Positions 1,952-62,356 of a DNA stretch of 64,000 nucleotides are shown one piece after another (position 1 is the first letter of the stretch; the number at the start of each line of letters is the position of its first letter). Origin of the DNA: Patescibacteria group bacterium (GTDB taxonomy: Bacteria; Patescibacteriota; Patescibacteriia; 2-12-FULL-60-25); NCBI GenBank assembly GCA_041665165.1, contig JBAYJJ010000001.1:7210-71209 (forward strand), read 5' to 3'. Below the pieces are notes generated by a model that saw nothing but the letters and a program-made list of their open reading frames with translations, made no database searches and was not told the DNA's origin. Position numbers and translations under genes: made by a program.

Positions 1952-2880
1952 AAAAAATAAACCGAATACTTTTCACTTGTGCCGGCGGCAGCGGCCCGTT
2001 GTACTTGGCAAAAAAGATGCGGAAAAAATACAAAGTCTTTTTGGTTGATGCCAGCCCCAATTCCCCTGCCCCGCAGCTTGGTTTGCCCTTCAGGGTCGTG
2101 CCCTTCGGCAGCGACCCCAAATACATAAATAAACTCAGTGCCTTGATCCGCCAGTGGCGCATCCAGTGCATCGTGCCTGGTGCGGATGAGGAGCTTTTGC
2201 CGGTCAGGCAGCTGTGCGAAAAAATCCCTGGCTTAATGGCTGTGATGCCCAGCGCCAGTTTCACCCGGCTTTGCCTAAACAAAAAAAATCTCATGGTGGC
2301 GCTCGAAAAACTCGGGATTTCATCCATCGAAACTTACCGCAGCCCAGGCCAAGTCAGATATCCGGCCATCATCAAGCCCATTTTTGGGCGCGGCTCAAGA
2401 GGCGTGCACACGGTCAAGGATAAAAAACAACTCTCTGGATATTTGGCGCTTTACAATAAAAAATTCAATGACCTGTTGGTCCAGCCCTATATCCCTGGCG
2501 ACGAGTATACTGTTTCTTTGATAGTAAACAATCGCAACCAATTGCAAGGCATTGCACCCAAGAAAATCATCCAAAAAACCGGGATTACCAAAGCCGCTGT
2601 TTCCCAAGGCCAGCCTGCGATAACGAAAGCCTGCAAAAAAATCGTGGAAAAACTAAAACCTATGGGGCCATGCAACATCCAGCTCAAGATCTGGAAAGGC
2701 AAAGCCTATATCTTCGAAATCAATCCCCGTTTATCGACCACTTCAGTATTGACGGACAAGTGCATGGGCAATGAGGTTGAGCTTTACATCCAATCCTATG
2801 ATGCGCAACCTAAAAAGATGGGCTTTATTCAGGGCATCAAGCTTTTCAGATACGATGAAAATGTTTTTCAGAATCCATGA
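1948..2880 (+). CDS. ATP-grasp domain protein (carboxylate-amine ligase type)
   Basis: 310 aa with a 4-nt ATGA overlap onto pseI. YPAIIKPIFGRGSRGV...LVQPYIPGDEYTV...IFEINPRLSTT matches the ATP-grasp fold pattern. Confidence 0.7.
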   Translation: MKKINRILFTCAGGSGPLYLAKKMRKKYKVFLVDASPNSPAPQLGLPFRVVPFGSDPKYINKLSALIRQWRIQCIVPGADEELLPVRQLCEKIPGLMAVMPSASFTRLCLNKKNLMVALEKLGISSIETYRSPGQVRYPAIIKPIFGRGSRGVHTVKDKKQLSGYLALYNKKFNDLLVQPYIPGDEYTVSLIVNNRNQLQGIAPKKIIQKTGITKAAVSQGQPAITKACKKIVEKLKPMGPCNIQLKIWKGKAYIFEINPRLSTTSVLTDKCMGNEVELYIQSYDAQPKKMGFIQGIKLFRYDENVFQNP

Positions 2881-3569
2881 ACTACATAATTGGAGACATC
2901 CACGGCAATTTTACGGAACTGGAAAAACTACTGACCATCATAAAACCCCAGGCGAACGACCGACTGATTTTTCTTGGTGACTACCTAGACAAGAACTCAG
3001 GCACGAAACGTACGCTAGACCTGCTTCACCAGCTCGCTGATACTCATGACTGCGTTTTCCTTAAAGGCAACCATGAATACGTGTGGGAAAAATATTTGCT
3101 TGGCCATGAATTGCAGCGTCGGGATTTCTTGCTGAAGTTCGGCGGACTTGAGATGCTCAAGGAATTTTCGCCTGAAGCAGAGCGTTTATTGCTCGAGGAC
3201 AAGATTGATGCTATTTCGGTATTTCTAAAGGAATATCTAAATCTACTTCCGCACATGAAAAATTATGCGACTGTTGGATCTTATTTAGCACTTCATGCAG
3301 GAATCACGGATGAACAAATGGATTCGACCCCTCTGGTCTTTGATGAACCTAACTACTTTTTGCGGCCTGATCACATTCCGACTGAGCTCAAATATCTCGG
3401 CCAATACACACTAGTGGCCGGCCATACGCATTTAAGCCCAGAGCCAGTAAAGCTCCCGGGCTACATTAATGTTGATTTAGGCGCTGGCTTTGGCAAATAT
3501 CTAGGCGCTTTTTGCCCTGAAACAAGCCAAGTCATCCGGTCTGACGGCAAAATCTTTGAACTGGGCTAG
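2877..3569 (+). CDS. Metallophosphoesterase (calcineurin-like, PP1/ApaH type)
   Basis: 230 aa. Carries the canonical GDIHGN...GDYLDKN...GNHE...GHTH motif series and has a 4-nt overlap with the upstream gene. Confidence 0.8.
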   Translation: MNYIIGDIHGNFTELEKLLTIIKPQANDRLIFLGDYLDKNSGTKRTLDLLHQLADTHDCVFLKGNHEYVWEKYLLGHELQRRDFLLKFGGLEMLKEFSPEAERLLLEDKIDAISVFLKEYLNLLPHMKNYATVGSYLALHAGITDEQMDSTPLVFDEPNYFLRPDHIPTELKYLGQYTLVAGHTHLSPEPVKLPGYINVDLGAGFGKYLGAFCPETSQVIRSDGKIFELG

Positions 3570-47647: not shown

Positions 47648-47774
47648 AAACTACTTAAAAAAATGACACAGCTTTCCAAAGCTCCCCTCTTGACAAAGGA
47701 GCCAAATTACTGGTAAGAAGCTCTCACTAGAGATGAAGGAGCGATCCTTCGACAACTCAAACAGGAGGTTGGTG

Positions 47775-49694
47775 ATGCGACGTCAGAATGCGATTCGGTA
47801 CATGTTGTTGGGAGGGATCGTTCTTGCGGGATCGATCGACACCGGGTGCCAAGGGAGCTACGACCACAAGGAGCAGTACAGCCAGGTGCAACAGGCCTTG
47901 TCCTGCGCACCGGGTGTTTTCACCCACGGATGTACCTACGAGCAGCAGAACGAGACTTGCTATTTCGACGGCAAGCCCCTCGTCTGCGCGAACTGCATCT
48001 GGTGGGACCAAGCAGCTCTGACCAAGAGCGGTGGGCACATCCCCGATAATTCCAAATGCCAGCCCAGCGAAGCTGGTGCCGGTGGAACGTCCACGGGCGG
48101 GACTGGTGGAAACCAGGACGCCTCGGCTGGCTCTGGAGGTACGTCTGTCGGAGGAACGGGCGGAACCTCAACCGGAGGCACGGGTGGTACCGACCAGGAT
48201 GCGGCAGCTGGAAGCGCAGGAACCGGTGGAACCGTTTGCTCCTGCACACCAGGAACCAAGTTCGGTCCGTGCGAAGGTGATGGCTGGCAGTACTGTCTTG
48301 CGGACTGCATCAACCTGACCGCTTGTCTCCACACTGGAGCAGGAGGCTCGGGCGGCAGCTCGACCGGCGGCGCAGCAGGCAGCGGCGCTGGCGGGACCAC
48401 GACTGGCGGCAACGCGGGCGCAGCAACCGGAGGCACGGCTGGTGTCGGCGGAACTTCCACAGGTGGATCGTCCGGAACCGGAGGCACAGCAACCGGCGGA
48501 AGCGCAGGTGCAGCTGGTGCTTTGACTGGCGGATCTGGCGGCACGGCTGGCACGGGCGGAACCTCTACCGGAGGAACTGCAGGCCAGGCTGGTGTGGCTG
48601 GAAGTGCGGGGTCCTCGACCGGAGGCACGAACGCTGGCGGCGCTGGCGGGACCACGACTGGCGGCAGTGCAGGCGCAGCAGGTGCTTTGACCGGTGGATC
48701 TGGCGGCACGAGCGCAGGCGGAAGCGCAGGCGCAGCTGGCACGGGCGGAACGTCAGGAGATTGCAAGGGTGGCCAGGAATGCGCCACGTATTCCTTCCCC
48801 CCGGACTACAGCTGCAAGGAAACACTGCCTCAAGAGCCAGGATCAGACGCCGGACTGGAAGTCGTGACGTTCGGCTGCGTCTGTGGCTGGGTTATGTCGA
48901 TCGACGCCATCCCGTACATGGTCTGCCAAGATGGCGGAGCAGGAGGCTCGGGCGGCACCGGAGGCACTTCGTCGACCGGCGGAAGCGCTGGCGCAGCTGG
49001 TGCTTTGACCGGCGGCGCAGGCGGAACGACAGCCGGTGGTTCAGGTGGCACGAGCACGGGTGGCACGGCAGGCAATGCCGGTTCATCCACTGGTGGCACG
49101 TCGGCCGGAGGTGCAGGCGGATCTGGCGGTGTTCTGCCGGACGCAGGTTCCTCGCTCAAGAATCCCGAATTCCTGACCGACCCATGCGTGGACGCGGATC
49201 GCGCGATCTCGCCGACCACGCTCCCCGCAATCGGACTCTGGCTCCAATACCAGGCGCCGATCAAGCTACCGGACACGCTGCTCGGCGAGTACGACTGGAC
49301 CAACTACACTACGCCAGGGTACACGGATACCAAGTGGCAGATTCGAACAGCCACTTCCTCGACCGCGGCCACGAGCATCTTCGCCCTGCTCATCAACACC
49401 CCGGGCCTGTCCTATGACCGCTGGTTCATGGTCAAGCAGATCGACCCTCTGTCCACGCAGGATTGCCTGTTCTACAACAGCGACGGGTACTACTGCAACT
49501 ACTCACCGGATGCCACGCAGACCGGAACCCTGTTCTGCTCTGGCACCTGGACCCTGTGGCTGGACAATGTCCAGGTCACGACCTACACGGATGCGGCAGG
49601 TGTGACACCCGCTCTGCCCTTCGTCAAAACCTTCACGTTCAAGGATGGAAATTGGGCGCCCAAGATCGGCGTCCGTCTCCCCCTCGCTACGTGA
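47775..49694 (+). CDS. Secreted Gly/Thr/Ser/Ala-repeat protein with Cys-rich modules (possible lipoprotein)
   Basis: The ATG at 47775 is preceded by AGGAGG with a 6-nt spacing; the track start at 47733 lacks a ribosome-binding site. It has the signal-like MRRQNAIRYMLLGGIVLAGSIDTGC, then four GGTSTGG/GGSAGAAGALTGG tracts separating Cys-containing modules. It is very G+C-rich. Confidence 0.7.
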   Translation: MRRQNAIRYMLLGGIVLAGSIDTGCQGSYDHKEQYSQVQQALSCAPGVFTHGCTYEQQNETCYFDGKPLVCANCIWWDQAALTKSGGHIPDNSKCQPSEAGAGGTSTGGTGGNQDASAGSGGTSVGGTGGTSTGGTGGTDQDAAAGSAGTGGTVCSCTPGTKFGPCEGDGWQYCLADCINLTACLHTGAGGSGGSSTGGAAGSGAGGTTTGGNAGAATGGTAGVGGTSTGGSSGTGGTATGGSAGAAGALTGGSGGTAGTGGTSTGGTAGQAGVAGSAGSSTGGTNAGGAGGTTTGGSAGAAGALTGGSGGTSAGGSAGAAGTGGTSGDCKGGQECATYSFPPDYSCKETLPQEPGSDAGLEVVTFGCVCGWVMSIDAIPYMVCQDGGAGGSGGTGGTSSTGGSAGAAGALTGGAGGTTAGGSGGTSTGGTAGNAGSSTGGTSAGGAGGSGGVLPDAGSSLKNPEFLTDPCVDADRAISPTTLPAIGLWLQYQAPIKLPDTLLGEYDWTNYTTPGYTDTKWQIRTATSSTAATSIFALLINTPGLSYDRWFMVKQIDPLSTQDCLFYNSDGYYCNYSPDATQTGTLFCSGTWTLWLDNVQVTTYTDAAGVTPALPFVKTFTFKDGNWAPKIGVRLPLAT

Positions 49695-49751: not shown

Positions 49752-49765
49752 ATTCGCTTCGCTCG

Positions 49766-49799
49766 TACGAATTACGAATTTGTATACGAATATACGAAT
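49766..49799. repeat. Four copies of TACGAAT (two in strict 7-nt tandem)
   Basis: TACGAAT occurs at 49766, 49773, 49785 and 49793. The region is also partly palindromic (ACGAATTCGT). Confidence 0.6.
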
Positions 49800-49824
49800 T
49801 CGTTTGCAAAAAAAACGAGGCATA

Positions 49825-49940
49825 CCAGAGGCTGCCAGTTGGCTCCCCTCCTCCTTCTGTCATTTCGAGCGCTTCCTCCCCTTTTTGTCATTTCGAGCGG
49901 AGTTTGACGGAGTCGAGAAATCGTCGATTCTTGTGTTACC
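49825..49940 (+). repeat. Repeat family A, copy 1 (composite palindromic element)
   Basis: CCAGAGGCTGCCAGTTGGCTCCCCTCCTCC is followed by two TGTCATTTCGAGCG boxes and GAGTCGAGAAATC. It aligns with the reverse complement of 50245-50428 over about the first 75 nt. Confidence 0.7.
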
Positions 49941-49982
49941 ATTTTTCTGCCAAATCTTCCCAAGTCGGATTCATTGAAGTAA

Positions 49983-50216
49983 TCAAATCACCTTCTTTGT
50001 TCTTGACCAGCGCTTTATTTGCTTCTCACGTTCAATTACTGCCATGACATCATTGCCAACTTCAAAATAAACTAGGCGATCACATCCATATTTTTTAGTA
50101 AAACCAGGAACAGCATGCATTCTATGTTCTGCGATACGCCTATTTAGATCATTAGTCATCCCGACATACAAAGTACCCGAAGGAGATGACGTGATATAGA
50201 TAAAATAATCCTTCAT
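49983..50216 (-). CDS. Small GIY-YIG nuclease-family protein
   Basis: The ATG at 50216 gives MKDYFIYITSSPSGTLYVGMTNDLNRRIAEHRMHAVPGFTKKYGCDRLVYFE...AIEREKQIKRWSRTKK, a classic GIY...YVG...R..EH...E.K motif series. The upstream part of the track ORF is read through repeat A and was discarded. Confidence 0.8.
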   Translation of the reverse strand: MKDYFIYITSSPSGTLYVGMTNDLNRRIAEHRMHAVPGFTKKYGCDRLVYFEVGNDVMAVIEREKQIKRWSRTKKVI

Positions 50217-50244
50217 ATAATTAGAATAAACAAAATTTGCATTC

Positions 50245-50428
50245 TTGTCATTTCGAGCGAAACGAAGTGAAGTCGAGAAATCTCCGAATCCAACGTTACC
50301 AAGTAACTTCAGTTTCCGAGATCTCTCGACTGACGCTCGAGATGACAAAAGGGGGTACAGTCGAGATGACAAGGGGAGGAAATAGTCAAGATGACAAAGC
50401 AGGCGGGGAACCAACTAGCAGCCTGTGG
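50245..50428 (-). repeat. Repeat family A, copy 2 (longest copy)
   Basis: Its reverse complement reads CCACAGGCTGCTAGTTGGTTCCCC...TTGTCATCTTGAC...TTGTCATCTCGAC...TTTGTCATCTCGAGCG...GAGAGATCTCGGAAACTGAAGTTACTTGGTAACGTTGGATTCGGAGATTTCTCGAC...CGCTCGAAATGACAAG. Confidence 0.75.
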
Positions 50429-50550
50429 TTATCAAACCGTCCCATTATCAAGGGGACAGCTTTGATGCCCGCATCAAAGCAGGGGATCTTCGGGTATAAA
50501 AAGAGGGCGCGCACAGAGTCGTACGCGCCCAAAGGAAGTTAACTAAGCTT

Positions 50551-52422
50551 TCACCAGTCAGTCACACCGTTGCAGTTCGCATCCGGGCCGCCGACCAAGT
50601 CAGTCGCACCAGGGTGCGTGTCACCGCTCAGGTCATTACAATCGTGAGGAAGAACGAAACCGTCCGTGTCCCAGTCCGTGGCGCCAGAAGCCTGGACCAT
50701 GACCCTGAGATTGCATCCATTGTGCTGGTTGTTCCATACGCCCTGCACTTCGGGAGTGGCATACTTGTTGCCGTTCTTCTCGATGTAGCAGGCGAATTCG
50801 AACTGCAGTTGGGAAGGATTGTCCCACTGACAGCCAGCATACTGCCAGATGTTATTGCTCGGCGGGTCGCGGTAGGTGCTGAACAAGAACTCGTCGTTCT
50901 CCTTGGGGTTCTGCACCGTGAACGTGCCCCACACAGCATTGTATGTTGGCACGGTCTGCGAGCCAGCGCCCCACAGCACGGCATAGTAGTCGTGCTTGGC
51001 AACGTCCGGCAGAAACACGCGGTAGAAGCACACGAGCTTGGTTGCGCTCGGCGTGCCGCAGCCTTCGTCGATCTGCCCGTCGCAATCGTTGTCCTTGCCA
51101 TCGCAGAGCTCAGTCGCGGCTGGCTGATTTCCGTTGGGGCCAAAGATGTTTGCATCGTTGTCGTTGCAATCACCCTGGGCCACGGTCCTGCCGTCGCCAT
51201 CCTTGTCCTGCGAAACGCTGCAGCCTTCGTCCGTCTGGCCGTTGCAGTTGTCGTCGACTCCGTTGCACTGTTCGGCCGCGCCGGGATTGACATCCGACTT
51301 GGTGTCGTCGCAGTCGCCAATCTTGAGGACGTAGCCCTGAGGCTGAAGGTTGGTATACTGCCAGATCGAGCTGACACCATACCCGTCTCCGTCAACATCC
51401 CTGTACCACATCTGTGGCGGAACGCCGCAGCCTTCGTCAACCAACCCGTTGCAGTCATTGTCTTTGCCATCGCAGGACTCGTACGAAACCCCGGGGTTCA
51501 TCGCCGGGTCGTTGTCGTTGCAGTCGCCCTGGGCCACGGTGAAACCGTCACCATCCTTGTCCTGCGAGACACTGCAGCCTTCGTCAATCTGGTTGTTGCA
51601 GTTGTCGTCGACTCCGTTGCAGAGCTCGACGGCCTTGGGATGGACGCTGGCGTTGTTATCGTCGCAATCGTCGTTGCCAGTAATCCAGTTTACGTAGCCC
51701 GGGAGCCACGCGTCGCAGGGGCTGACGAACAAGTAATCGTTCGGGTCCCCGTAGCCATCGCCGTCCTTGTCGTGCAAACGCCGTTCCTTGGTGTTGCAGG
51801 AGTTCCATCCGCCTGTGCCGCCAGTTCCGGATGATCCGCCTTGCGCGGTTCCACCGGTTCCGGACGATCCACCCGTGGGAGTTCCGCCAACACCAGCTGA
51901 ACCTCCTTGCGAGGTCCCTGCTGTGCCGCCAGTCGAGCTTCCGCCCGTGGAAGTTCCGCCGACGCCACTCGATCCTCCTTGTGAGGATCCTCCAGTTGAC
52001 GAGCCTCCAGTCGAGCTTCCGCCCTGACTCGAACCGCCGGCGCCGCCGGCAGACGTGCCGCCGGTTCCACTGGACCCGCCTGTGGAGGGCTGGCCTGACC
52101 CACCCGCACCGGATGTTCCGGCATCGGGCTGGGTGCAATCGCAAGCGCCGTACGTGTTCTGCGCGTTGCAGACCTGAACGCCCTTGAGGCCTCCAGCGCA
52201 ATCACAGACGATCTGCTGTCCCTGCACGCACTTTGCAGGTGTTCCAGCTGATCCGCCTTGTGCGGTTCCGCCGACACCGGACGAGCCTCCGATTGAGGTG
52301 CCGGCGCTTCCTGCACTGCCTGCAGCAGCCGGAAACTCGGCTTCGTCGCCACTGGTGTCGATGCCGCATCCGACTGCAAGAACCGAAAGCACAACCACGG
52401 ACAATGCCTTGATATTTCTCAT
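50551..52422 (-). CDS. Lipoprotein with a Gly/Ser/Thr linker and five MopE-like putative metal-binding motif repeats
   Basis: 623 aa. Has the lipobox MRNIKALSVVVLSVLAVGC and a GGSSGTGGT linker. Repeats follow the pattern D(K/V)DGDG..........DC(D/N)D......PG..E.C(N/D)G.D(D/N)(N/D)C(N/D)G..DEGC, for example DCDDNNASVHPKAVELCNGVDDNCNNQIDEGC. Confidence 0.75.
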   Translation of the reverse strand: MRNIKALSVVVLSVLAVGCGIDTSGDEAEFPAAAGSAGSAGTSIGGSSGVGGTAQGGSAGTPAKCVQGQQIVCDCAGGLKGVQVCNAQNTYGACDCTQPDAGTSGAGGSGQPSTGGSSGTGGTSAGGAGGSSQGGSSTGGSSTGGSSQGGSSGVGGTSTGGSSTGGTAGTSQGGSAGVGGTPTGGSSGTGGTAQGGSSGTGGTGGWNSCNTKERRLHDKDGDGYGDPNDYLFVSPCDAWLPGYVNWITGNDDCDDNNASVHPKAVELCNGVDDNCNNQIDEGCSVSQDKDGDGFTVAQGDCNDNDPAMNPGVSYESCDGKDNDCNGLVDEGCGVPPQMWYRDVDGDGYGVSSIWQYTNLQPQGYVLKIGDCDDTKSDVNPGAAEQCNGVDDNCNGQTDEGCSVSQDKDGDGRTVAQGDCNDNDANIFGPNGNQPAATELCDGKDNDCDGQIDEGCGTPSATKLVCFYRVFLPDVAKHDYYAVLWGAGSQTVPTYNAVWGTFTVQNPKENDEFLFSTYRDPPSNNIWQYAGCQWDNPSQLQFEFACYIEKNGNKYATPEVQGVWNNQHNGCNLRVMVQASGATDWDTDGFVLPHDCNDLSGDTHPGATDLVGGPDANCNGVTDW

Positions 52423-55034: not shown

Positions 55035-55126
55035 GTCAACATTATAACATACCCCCTCTATCCGTCCCTCTATTTACTATACTGCGGGACTGCCTTTCCC
55101 CCCGCCGCAGGGGAAAGGCTGGTTAA

Positions 55127-55155
55127 CCAGAGGCGGCTAGTTGGTTCCCCTCCTC
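55127..55155 (+). repeat. Repeat family A, terminal fragment (copy 4)
   Basis: CCAGAGGCGGCTAGTTGGTTCCCCTCCTC matches the outer end of copies 1-3. It is flanked by the hairpins CCTTTCCCC..GGGGAAAGG and CCTCCTC-AACT-GAGGAG. Confidence 0.55.
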
Positions 55156-55217
55156 AACTGAGGAGCGGGCTAGGGGTGGTCGATACTAAAAAAGCTCATC
55201 AACTGATGAGCTCGAGA

Positions 55218-56015: not shown

Positions 56016-56100
56016 GGCGATCCTCCTTGAGTTGTAGGTACGAAATCAGGAGTATTTAGACTGAAAACAGAAGGGAAGTCAAGTCTGAAACCTGTCCCCA

Positions 56101-56243
56101 CCACAGGCTGCTAGCTAGTTCCACTCCTTTTGTCATCTCGACTGCAGCGGAGCGAAATGGAGAGATCTCGGAAACAGAAGTTACCTGGCCACGTTAGATT
56201 CGGAGATTTCTCGATTACGTCTGACTTCACTCGAAAAGACAGG
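56101..56243 (+). repeat. Repeat family A, copy 3
   Basis: CCACAGGCTGCTAGCTAGTTCC...TTTTGTCATCTCGAC...GAGAGATCTCGGAAACAGAAGTTACCTGGCCACGTTAGATTCGGAGATTTCTCGAT...CACTCGAAAAGACAGG is colinear with the reverse complement of copy 2. Confidence 0.75.
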
Positions 56244-56254
56244 AATGAGGGGCT

Positions 56255-61298: not shown

Positions 61299-62356
61299 AC
61301 GAACCAAGGCCGGATTTTCTGCGCCCCCTCAGTGCAGATAGCCTTTAATTCTTTGCGCTTTTTCAGCATTTTTGGCAAACCGGCCAAAGCCGCTCCATAA
61401 CCCTTGAGCGATGACCATGAAAACAGCGCGGCAAGCATCTTACCTATTTCATACGGTAAAATCCAGAGCCCGTGCCATAAAAGGTCAGAAAAAGCCAGGT
61501 TCTTAGCCAAAACCCAGATATGATTGCGGCTCGAAAGATAGGTTACAAAAGCAGGATGCCCAAATCGCTTGAGCCAGACCGTAAAAACATTGGATCTTGG
61601 GCTGGAAGGCACACGGCGGTAGTGCCAGGCTACGGCCTTGGGCACTAAAGCTGATTTCATGCCCATGCGGCGCATGCGCCAAGCCACATCCACGTCTTCT
61701 TTATATGAATGGAAATCTTCATCAAAAAATTGACCATTGAGGCTGGAGCGCACCAAAGCTGAAGCGCGATAAAAAGCACAAGCGCCGGTCGGACCGAAAA
61801 TTTCCATTTCCTTGTCATACTGGCCCTCGTCGATTTGACCGGCTTTATCATCATAAGCGCGGCGCGCTTTTGTCATGTGTATGCCCAGCGAATCAATCAC
61901 ATTTGTTTTCTCTGTTTCTGCCCTGTCGCCAATGCCTGGACGCAAATGCGCCTTCAGAAGTTTTGGCATGGCGCTATCTATTTCCAAGTGGCTGTCCATG
62001 AAGCTGACCAATTCAAATATACAGTTTTGGTCCAGCACGATATCCGGATTGCATATCAAGATATAAGCGCGCGACAGATCTGAATCCTGCAGGCCTGAGA
62101 GAGCGAGTTGGATGGCCTGATTGTGAGCGCGCGTAAAACCATAGTTGCGCATGTTGCGCAAAACAGTCATACCCGGATATTCACTGGTCAGCCACTGCGC
62201 CACCCCATCAGTTGAGGCATTGTCCACCAAAATTATTCTATGCTGTTCGTTTTGGGCTTCAAGGCTTTCAAACAAGGATGGTAAATAAGCCATGGAGTTC
62301 CAGGCTACGATATTCACGGAAAGTCTTAGCTGATCCATATCTATTTCATGTAACAT
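61295..62356 (-). CDS. GT2 glycosyltransferase (rhamnosyltransferase-like)
   Basis: 353 aa. LSVNIVAWNS...IILVDNASTDG...NYGFTRAHNQ...ILICNPD. Confidence 0.8.
   Translation of the reverse strand: MLHEIDMDQLRLSVNIVAWNSMAYLPSLFESLEAQNEQHRIILVDNASTDGVAQWLTSEYPGMTVLRNMRNYGFTRAHNQAIQLALSGLQDSDLSRAYILICNPDIVLDQNCIFELVSFMDSHLEIDSAMPKLLKAHLRPGIGDRAETEKTNVIDSLGIHMTKARRAYDDKAGQIDEGQYDKEMEIFGPTGACAFYRASALVRSSLNGQFFDEDFHSYKEDVDVAWRMRRMGMKSALVPKAVAWHYRRVPSSPRSNVFTVWLKRFGHPAFVTYLSSRNHIWVLAKNLAFSDLLWHGLWILPYEIGKMLAALFSWSSLKGYGAALAGLPKMLKKRKELKAICTEGAQKIRPWFV

Follow-up and report, generated by a model that had tools for sequence, protein, structure and literature searches.

The locus and its repeats

We analysed a GIY-YIG nuclease gene and the inverted repeats that frame it at positions 49825-50428 of a 64-kb stretch of DNA from a Patescibacteria group bacterium (the whole stretch is referred to below as the window). 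A first-pass annotation of the letters alone had described a homing-type nuclease gene between inverted composite repeats, each made of an outer end and internal boxes, and had likened the unit to a minimal mobile element. The framing itself was borne out: the outer ends form 33-nt arms that are 85% complementary (49824-49856 against 50397-50429), the outer-end pattern CCASAGGCTGCYAGTTGGYTCCCC has four matches at up to three mismatches in the 64-kb window against 0.00 expected from 100 dinucleotide shuffles, and the TGTCATYTCGAS box has eight matches against 1.15 expected, a count of eight being reached in no shuffle. Six of the eight boxes lie within 49858-50396, three on each strand, and a 56-nt direct repeat composed of a box and a hairpin arm brackets the nuclease gene (49886-49941 and 50246-50301). 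Read in the orientation of the gene, the locus runs through an outer end, two half boxes, a forward unit, a short loop, a reverse unit, a promoter-like site, the gene, a reverse unit, a half box and the second outer end. The low G+C of the unit relative to the two convergent genes on either side was also confirmed (37-46% against 58-70%); however, the window as a whole averages 48.6%, so that the neighbours, not the unit, are the compositional outliers.

The features are listed here, with SRM standing for the Ssn-related motif of published ssn loci, ORF for open reading frame, family A for the composite repeats just described and family B for a second intergenic repeat.

49824-49856, plus strand: left outer end, the 5' half of a family B repeat (ACCAGAGGCTGCCAGTTGGCTCCCCTCCTCC), placed by the inverted-repeat arm and motif matches
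49858-49871, plus strand: half SRM box TGTCATTTCGAGCG, which lacks the 3' half needed to close it; box and C/T-rich leader together make a 28-nt tandem copy
49886-49922, plus strand: complete SRM-type hairpin, TGTCAT-TTC...GAA-ATC, on the downstream side of the gene and reversed relative to it
49936-50216, minus strand: ssn gene with a 1-nt deletion at about 49985-49987 (called ORF 49983-50216)
50223-50251, minus strand: promoter-like ATGACA-17-TATTCT, by consensus match only; the SRM box, as its reverse complement, supplies the -35 hexamer
50246-50282, plus strand: full SRM unit, the distal half of the doublet upstream of the gene
50271-50331, no strand: imperfect palindrome with 29-nt arms and a 3-nt loop, joining two opposed SRM units into a doublet
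50320-50347, minus strand: full SRM unit TGTCAT-CTC...GAG-ATC
50360-50396, minus strand: two half SRM boxes (50360-50371 and 50385-50396) at 24-25 nt spacing, each with a C/T-rich leader; L083, an orthologous locus, has a different number of boxes
50397-50429, minus strand: right outer end (5' half of family B), inverted relative to the left one
55122-55188, plus strand: family B repeat without SRM unit or GIY gene, comprising the outer-end motif, the CCCCTCCTC/GAGGAG hairpin and GGGCTAGGGGTGGTCGATAC
56100-56245, plus strand: gene-free family A copy, in which a degenerate outer end (56101-56124) comes first and a palindromic spacer then separates a forward SRM unit (56131-56167) from a degenerate reverse one (56205-56241)

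An Ssn family gene with a frameshift

The called minus-strand ORF (49983-50216) encodes 77 aa, one fewer than first counted, and is truncated by the loss of one T from a run of four at about 49985-49987: the window reads gtgatttgatt against gtgattttgatt in L083, an orthologous locus on a 1.9-kb contig of run SRR13723396 that shares both neighbours and the repeats with the window. Past the break, the final 16 codons (...LITSMNPTWEDLAEKW and stop) are read in another frame as far as the stop at 49936-49938, and the restored product has 93 aa. Residues 4-75 of the restored sequence match the GIY-YIG domain (Pfam PF01541, E 1.9e-14), with no other Pfam model above threshold. A homing endonuclease was considered and rejected, since the protein has no DNA-binding domain and its weak match to NCBIfam TIGR01453 (E 2.8e-4, 21 bits) is far under the 56-bit cut-off; in place of the homing-type enzyme of the first-pass annotation we find a single-domain nuclease of the Ssn type.

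The architecture in which ssn genes lie with SRM or NTS repeats was described by Chenal et al. 2025 (Nat Commun 16:2388, PMC11893778). The SsnA protein of Neisseria meningitidis belongs to CDD family cd10448 and consists of a single GIY-YIG domain, 94 aa in all. It binds the NTS hairpin repeat (CGTCATTCCCGCGMAVGCGGGAATCYRG) solely as single-stranded DNA (ssDNA) and cuts a few nt upstream of it, is inactive on double-stranded DNA (dsDNA), on RNA and on the reverse strand, and reduces transformation by NTS-bearing DNA; the three nt preceding the NTS palindrome act in cutting and the C following it in binding (PMC11893778). At least one SRM was reported in the flanks of 71% of the homologues, with SRMs on both sides in 42%, and four homologues assayed in vitro gave site-specific ssDNA cleavage 5' of the hairpin (PMC11893778).

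That paper sets membership of the family at a tblastn E < 1e-10 to Neisseria SsnA. In a tblastn search of PLSDB the window protein matches N. gonorrhoeae NZ_CP119140.1 with E 1e-15, and in a pairwise BLASTP comparison the restored window protein shares 44% identity with the gonococcal SsnA orthologue (E 2e-25). The gonococcal ORF encodes 94 aa with Y6, Y17 and E64 as published, and lies among CGTCATTCCCGCGCAGGCGGGAATC repeats. In an alignment of 11 sequences that includes the gonococcal protein, Y7, Y17, R27, H31 and E64 are invariant, and the catalytic Tyr/Tyr/Glu are present in the window protein; 420 homologues of about 93-100 aa were found across many phyla. A sequence search of the PDB returned no Ssn structure, its best match being UPF0213 entry 1zg2 (E 2.5e-5). 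The gonococcal record (our locus L086) is a 2.17-Mb chromosome that is filed in PLSDB as a plasmid, and its ssnA region has no annotated features.

The gene in L083 is intact and encodes 93 aa. With the T restored, the window gene is 88% identical to it in DNA, with a synonymous divergence (pS) of 0.36 and a ratio of nonsynonymous to synonymous divergence (pN/pS) of 0.14, and the stretch from the box to the ATG is nearly invariant between the two. These sequences indicate that purifying selection acted on the ssn gene up to the very recent past, or else that the frameshift arose in assembly; the window gene is thus either a very recent pseudogene or the product of such an error. The deletion removes the conserved C-terminal helix, and five family-invariant residues of the 11-sequence alignment (L78, N83, W86, D88 and L89) fall past the break. 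A tblastn search found no second GIY-YIG copy in the 64-kb window.

The box is half of a covarying hairpin

The repeats were compared over 83 loci, namely 80 loci encoding relatives that are 49-65% identical, taken from one-genome-per-species contigs, and three closer relatives; the phyla sampled include Patescibacteria, Chloroflexota, Acidobacteriota, Pseudomonadota, Bacteroidota and Cyanobacteriota. In nearly all of these loci the gene flanks carry units such as TGTCATTCTGAGCGAAGCGAAGAATC. The TGTCATYTCGAS box makes up the 5' side of a conserved hairpin that reads GTC, AT-xxx, loop, x'x'x'-AT, C: 277 of 461 boxes close with the complementary triplet, against 50 of 303 in a reversed-triplet control. 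Eight different compensated triplets occur, the commonest being TCT/AGA (57), TCC/GGA (47), TTC/GAA (35) and CCC/GGG (34), followed by CCT/AGG (18), GCT/AGC (14), TGC/GCA (14) and CTC/GAG (11).

In a set of 71 units (L002-L075), chosen for AT(C/T) at 26-nt spacing irrespective of pairing, 96.6% of cells pair against 80.6% in shuffles and 15-52% in slid controls, and 97 cells are double changes against 19 in shuffles. Two additional interior pairs covary, giving the layout AT-xxx / G.A A.G / GC-GNA-GC; the commonest SRM interior in this set is GA-GCGAAGC-GA, in which two G-C pairs covary (GC 45, AU 17, CG 7). GCGAAGC is the classic hyper-stable DNA mini-hairpin, here flanked by tandem G.A pairs, and such an interior with covarying pairs fits recognition of the repeat as DNA rather than as RNA.

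The window units at 49886-49922, 50246-50282, 50320-50347 and 56131-56167 all have the form TGTCAT-xxx...x'x'x'-ATC and so conform to the SRM design. They keep the 5' GTCAT, a 5-bp stem (ATTTC/GAAAT or ATCTC/GAGAT) and the 3' ATC around interiors of 9-19 nt that are not obviously paired. The half boxes are spaced 24-28 nt apart, and each is a C/T-rich leader followed by the 5' half alone. For the doublet upstream of the gene (50240-50352), the folding energy as ssDNA is -27 kcal/mol (z = -4.67).

Gene and repeats go together across phyla

In 66 of the 76 loci for which both flanks were available, drawn from many phyla, units are found no more than 200 nt from the gene. Across these 76 loci a forward unit stands upstream in 44, a reverse unit downstream in 52 and both in 35, and beyond about 300 nt from the gene there are 0-4 units per 100-nt bin, mostly 0-1. 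Since the units stand near the gene in most loci across phyla, repeat framing is a general property of this GIY-YIG gene family, and the suspicion that gene and box repeats belong together was well founded. The orientation differs in the gonococcal locus L086, where the unit directly upstream of ssnA is reversed and those directly downstream are forward, the opposite of the majority elsewhere.

The 50 nt past the stop codon, which include the downstream unit 49886-49922, are 100% identical between the window and L083 despite the pS of 0.36. Moreover, 43 nt of this stretch are identical in L081, a locus that has other neighbours and encodes a 72% identical protein; around the L081 gene, units run forward on the upstream side and reverse on the downstream side, but the outer-end motif is missing. 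The identity of the downstream unit suggests that a putative cognate site is strongly constrained, or that gene conversion has taken place. Wherever the window and L083 differ by an indel, it falls at a unit boundary: one half box of exactly 28 nt is present in the window alone, and L083 carries an additional reverse unit of 52 nt and a loop longer by 9 nt. At 1395-1470 of L083, the reverse unit upstream of the gene holds a degenerate unit, TGTCCTGAGCGTAGTCGAAGGATC, within its loop; this nested unit and a further half box in that interval are both absent from the window.

Synteny of the ssn loci extends into their flanks within four lineages (Acidobacteriota, Nitrosomonas, Burkholderiales and Bacteroidota), where nucleotide identity is 77-93%, and two paralogues of one metagenome-assembled genome (L023 and L070) have no similarity at the DNA level. 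In two Burkholderiales genomes (L028 and L016) the ssn gene occupies the same site; the gene downstream of it is presumably lysS, to judge from the sequence of its 5' end alone. On the two sides of the L028 gene the units form a symmetrical array, three of them forward and three reverse (2870-3000 and 3290-3420).

The outer ends belong to a second repeat

The outer ends are half of an independent intergenic repeat, family B, and not the termini of an ssn element. Their motif ACCA(G/C)AGGCNGCYAGTTGGYTCCCC recurs in the window at 55127 without a nearby box, and at 56101 ahead of the gene-free doublet. When 241 million metagenome records were scanned, the motif turned up in two loci only, L084 and L085, of which L085 was set aside as probably a chance match inside a coding-like region. 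L084, from the JGI sample that also yielded one copy of the L081 contig, has three outer-end copies within 10 kb, beside genes unrelated to those of the window. Since the motif is independent of box and gene and is absent from L081, the composite termini are a mosaic of two repeat families, comparable to BIMEs or to the neisserial NIMEs, and their reading as the termini of a minimal transposon does not hold.

Family B, as defined from the L084 copies and 55122-55188, has three parts: a first, small hairpin (AACCA...TGGTT), a second hairpin (CCCCTCCTC...GAGGAG.GGG) whose loop varies, and the tail GCTAGGGGTGGTCGATAC. In one L084 copy the loop of this second hairpin contains a degenerate SRM-like insert, and the window copy at 56101-56245 looks, in its sequence, like the 5' half of family B followed by an SRM doublet. 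In wider extent (window 55050-55190; L084 1941-2152, 2858-3074 and 9477-9540), a conserved leader ACCCCTCTATCCGTCCCTCT is followed by a long hairpin, GGGACTGCCTTTCCCC...GGGGAAAGGC, with 36 nt more in its loop in L084 than in the window. The L084 copies follow ORF ends, and two of them are then followed by a near-consensus TTGACA-17-TATAAA/TATGTT promoter.

Surroundings of the locus

The convergent neighbours, 47733-49694 (plus strand) and 50551-52422 (minus strand), reach 70% G+C and both encode long Gly/Thr/Ser-rich proteins with GGTSTGG-type repeats and Cys-rich C-terminal parts; the one at 50551-52422 has five MopE-type metal-binding motifs (PF11617). A 48-nt segment between the terminator of this neighbour and the right outer end (50433-50480) is absent from L083 and holds a perfect 10-bp hairpin, GCTTTGATGC/GCATCAAAGC, at 50459-50480. 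Just outside the left outer end, 49760-49812 carries TACGAAT-type short repeats and a 13-nt palindrome (ACGAATTTGTATA/TATACGAATTCGT); the portion inside the L083 contig is identical to the window, a conservation exceeding that of the GIY gene. The gene-free family A copy at 56100-56245 is adjoined by a membrane-protein ORF and mreB.

Discussion

Our results make it very likely that the locus is an ssn gene of the Ssn single-strand-DNA nuclease family lying amid its own hairpin recognition repeats. The inverted-repeat pattern that drew attention to it is real, but is already accounted for by the published SRM/NTS-ssn architecture. Whereas family membership, the motif design, its covariation and the association of gene and repeat come directly out of the analysis, ssDNA cleavage by the window protein and its cellular role are predictions. 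By homology with SsnA, the enzyme would bind the SRM hairpin only in ssDNA and cut the same strand a few nt 5' of the motif, with the GTC governing cutting and the 3' C governing binding. Units in opposite orientations on the two sides of the gene appear as inverted repeats framing it, and opposed pairs without a gene form the long palindromic doublets at 50246-50347 and 56131-56241. The tandem half boxes are probably slippage-type duplications of the 5' half with its C/T-rich leader, and SRM units sit beside family B or inside its second hairpin. A likely role would be the trimming or restriction of SRM-bearing ssDNA, for example in DNA uptake or recombination, as in Neisseria.

Several observations weigh against this interpretation. 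Every Ssn assayed so far comes from outside the host phylum, and the frameshift, with invariant residues beyond the break, means that the system may be inactive in this genome. Single window units with their 9-19-nt loops fold no better than shuffles under nearest-neighbour parameters for ssDNA, and the structural evidence therefore rests on covariation and not on energy. In addition, the published SRM search string (HGTCWYN(0-2)YYVSBRHN(0-5)WNVSBRGN(0-2)RNCYNB) matches none of the window units and 0 of the 71 units with 26-nt spacing, while it matches the gonococcal NTS; its single match in the window, at 62165, is unrelated to the locus, shuffles giving 0.36. With the string unmatched and the design kept, the window repeats fit the SRM design but not its published operational definition.

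A different explanation takes 49825-50428 as a minimal autonomous mobile element, an analogue of an insertion sequence (IS) or of REP/RAYT, in which the GIY-YIG nuclease recognises and cuts the inverted composite termini and 56101-56245 is a derivative resembling a miniature inverted-repeat transposable element (MITE) or a REPIN. We consider this quite improbable, although much of the locus invites it: the inverted 33-nt ends give an IS-like layout, the unit is lower in G+C than its neighbours, a gene-free doublet carries the same end motif, the identical 43-nt downstream unit accompanies a 72% identical gene in another context in L081, the indels against L083 all fall at unit boundaries, and units are nested in other units or hairpin loops in L083 and L084. 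The Ssn authors themselves remark on the likeness of NTS-ssnA-NTS to an insertion sequence, as a hypothesis, and compare it with REP/RAYT (PMC11893778). Nevertheless, the ends are not specific to an element, as their motif is found unaccompanied by boxes or gene, once at 55127 and three times in L084, and is missing in L081. Reading of the sequence at the ends gave no target-site duplication, the flanks ...gaggcat|ACCAGAGG and CCTGTGGT|tatcaaac sharing no direct repeat, and no empty site was found, the same site being occupied in L083, the sole orthologous locus recovered; the window has no flanking genes in common with L081 or L084, so neither of these informs on empty sites. Within the DNA covered, 64 kb of this genome and two related fragments, the window holds a single GIY-YIG copy. 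Synteny of ssn loci with their flanks in four lineages and the dissimilar DNA of the paralogues L023 and L070 in one genome also speak against mobility of this kind, and we know of no strand-joining activity in GIY-YIG hydrolytic nucleases. The first-pass annotation had offered to give up its view if family A were scattered independently of such genes, and the gene-free copy at 56101-56245 goes part of the way. A literature search pairing GIY-YIG with MITE, REP or COG2827 found nothing relevant.

A related proposal, to which we give a small but real chance, is that SRM-ssn-SRM modules and gene-free doublets form a present or recent ssDNA mobile system driven by the hydrolytic GIY-YIG nuclease and host repair, with preferred insertion in the loops of hairpin repeats like family B, directly 3' of a CCCCTCCTY tract. 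If true, this would be a nuclease-only counterpart of REP/RAYT and would explain the nested units, the unit-boundary indels and the identical 43-nt unit beside 72% identical genes. Finally, the units might act as RNA, being transcript stabilisers, terminators or regulatory hairpins whose linkage to the GIY-YIG gene is incidental. The hairpin does covary, with a few G-U-type pairs, the units are intergenic and follow convergent genes, and the reverse box supplies a -35-like hexamer for the gene. We regard this as extremely unlikely, since the linkage in 66 of 76 loci across phyla is not incidental, units stand on both strands around the gene whatever the direction of transcription, and the commonest interior, GCGAAGC, is a DNA mini-hairpin. 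Furthermore, Rfam gave only chance-level matches both for the whole window at the gathering threshold and for the locus, four related loci and a family B copy at relaxed thresholds, and SsnA binds ssDNA and not RNA (PMC11893778).

An ssn gene amid its recognition repeats reveals no new kind of mobile element, and its significance lies elsewhere. It gives a name, and the tested biochemical activity of characterised relatives, to very common "hypothetical GIY-YIG" genes and their adjoining repeats in candidate-phyla genomes. The published SRM string misses the commonest repeat design among the 83 sampled loci (Chloroflexota, Acidobacteriota and Patescibacteria being among the phyla concerned), whereas a descriptor of GTCAT, a covarying 5-bp stem and ATC recovers the repeat in 87% of loci; such a simpler descriptor could widen the catalogue of enzyme-site pairs sought as ssDNA tools.

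Among known systems, GIY-YIG homing endonucleases of the I-TevI type share the catalytic core, but the window protein has no DNA-binding domain and no intron or intein context, and characterised Ssn relatives do not cut dsDNA. REP/BIME repeats, with their RAYT enzyme (TnpA-REP, a Y1 transposase) and REPINs, are likewise short directional hairpins scattered intergenically, often as inverted doublets and in mosaics with other motifs, and the single-copy gene of a cognate enzyme that binds ssDNA hairpins is likewise flanked by the repeats. The enzyme of the window is, in contrast, a GIY-YIG hydrolase and not an HUH/Y1 transposase, with, to our knowledge, no covalent intermediate or strand transfer, and mobilisation of the repeats is not evidenced in the window. 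In NIMEs, where dRS3 alternates with RS elements, a hairpin recognised by a nuclease similarly alternates with other repeats and copy number varies between strains; the partner family B is, however, unrelated in sequence and has a handful of copies in the DNA examined.

The closest system is Ssn/NTS of N. meningitidis (PMC11893778), with which the window shares a single-domain GIY-YIG protein of about 94 aa with the catalytic Y, Y and E at equivalent positions, a gene flanked on both sides by directional hairpins with 5' GTCAT and 3' ATC, and extra repeat copies at other intergenic sites. It differs in the interior of the repeat, which has a 5-bp variable stem, GA...GA and a 9-19-nt loop where NTS has a continuous 8-bp ATTCCCGC stem, as well as in its tandem half boxes, the embedding of units in a second repeat family and the frameshifted gene. 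Its host is probably of the Patescibacteria type, a group to which the closest named relatives belong and which goes unmentioned in the main text of PMC11893778. The system of the window is thus a new addition to the known Ssn/SRM kind, with a repeat design that the published search string missed.

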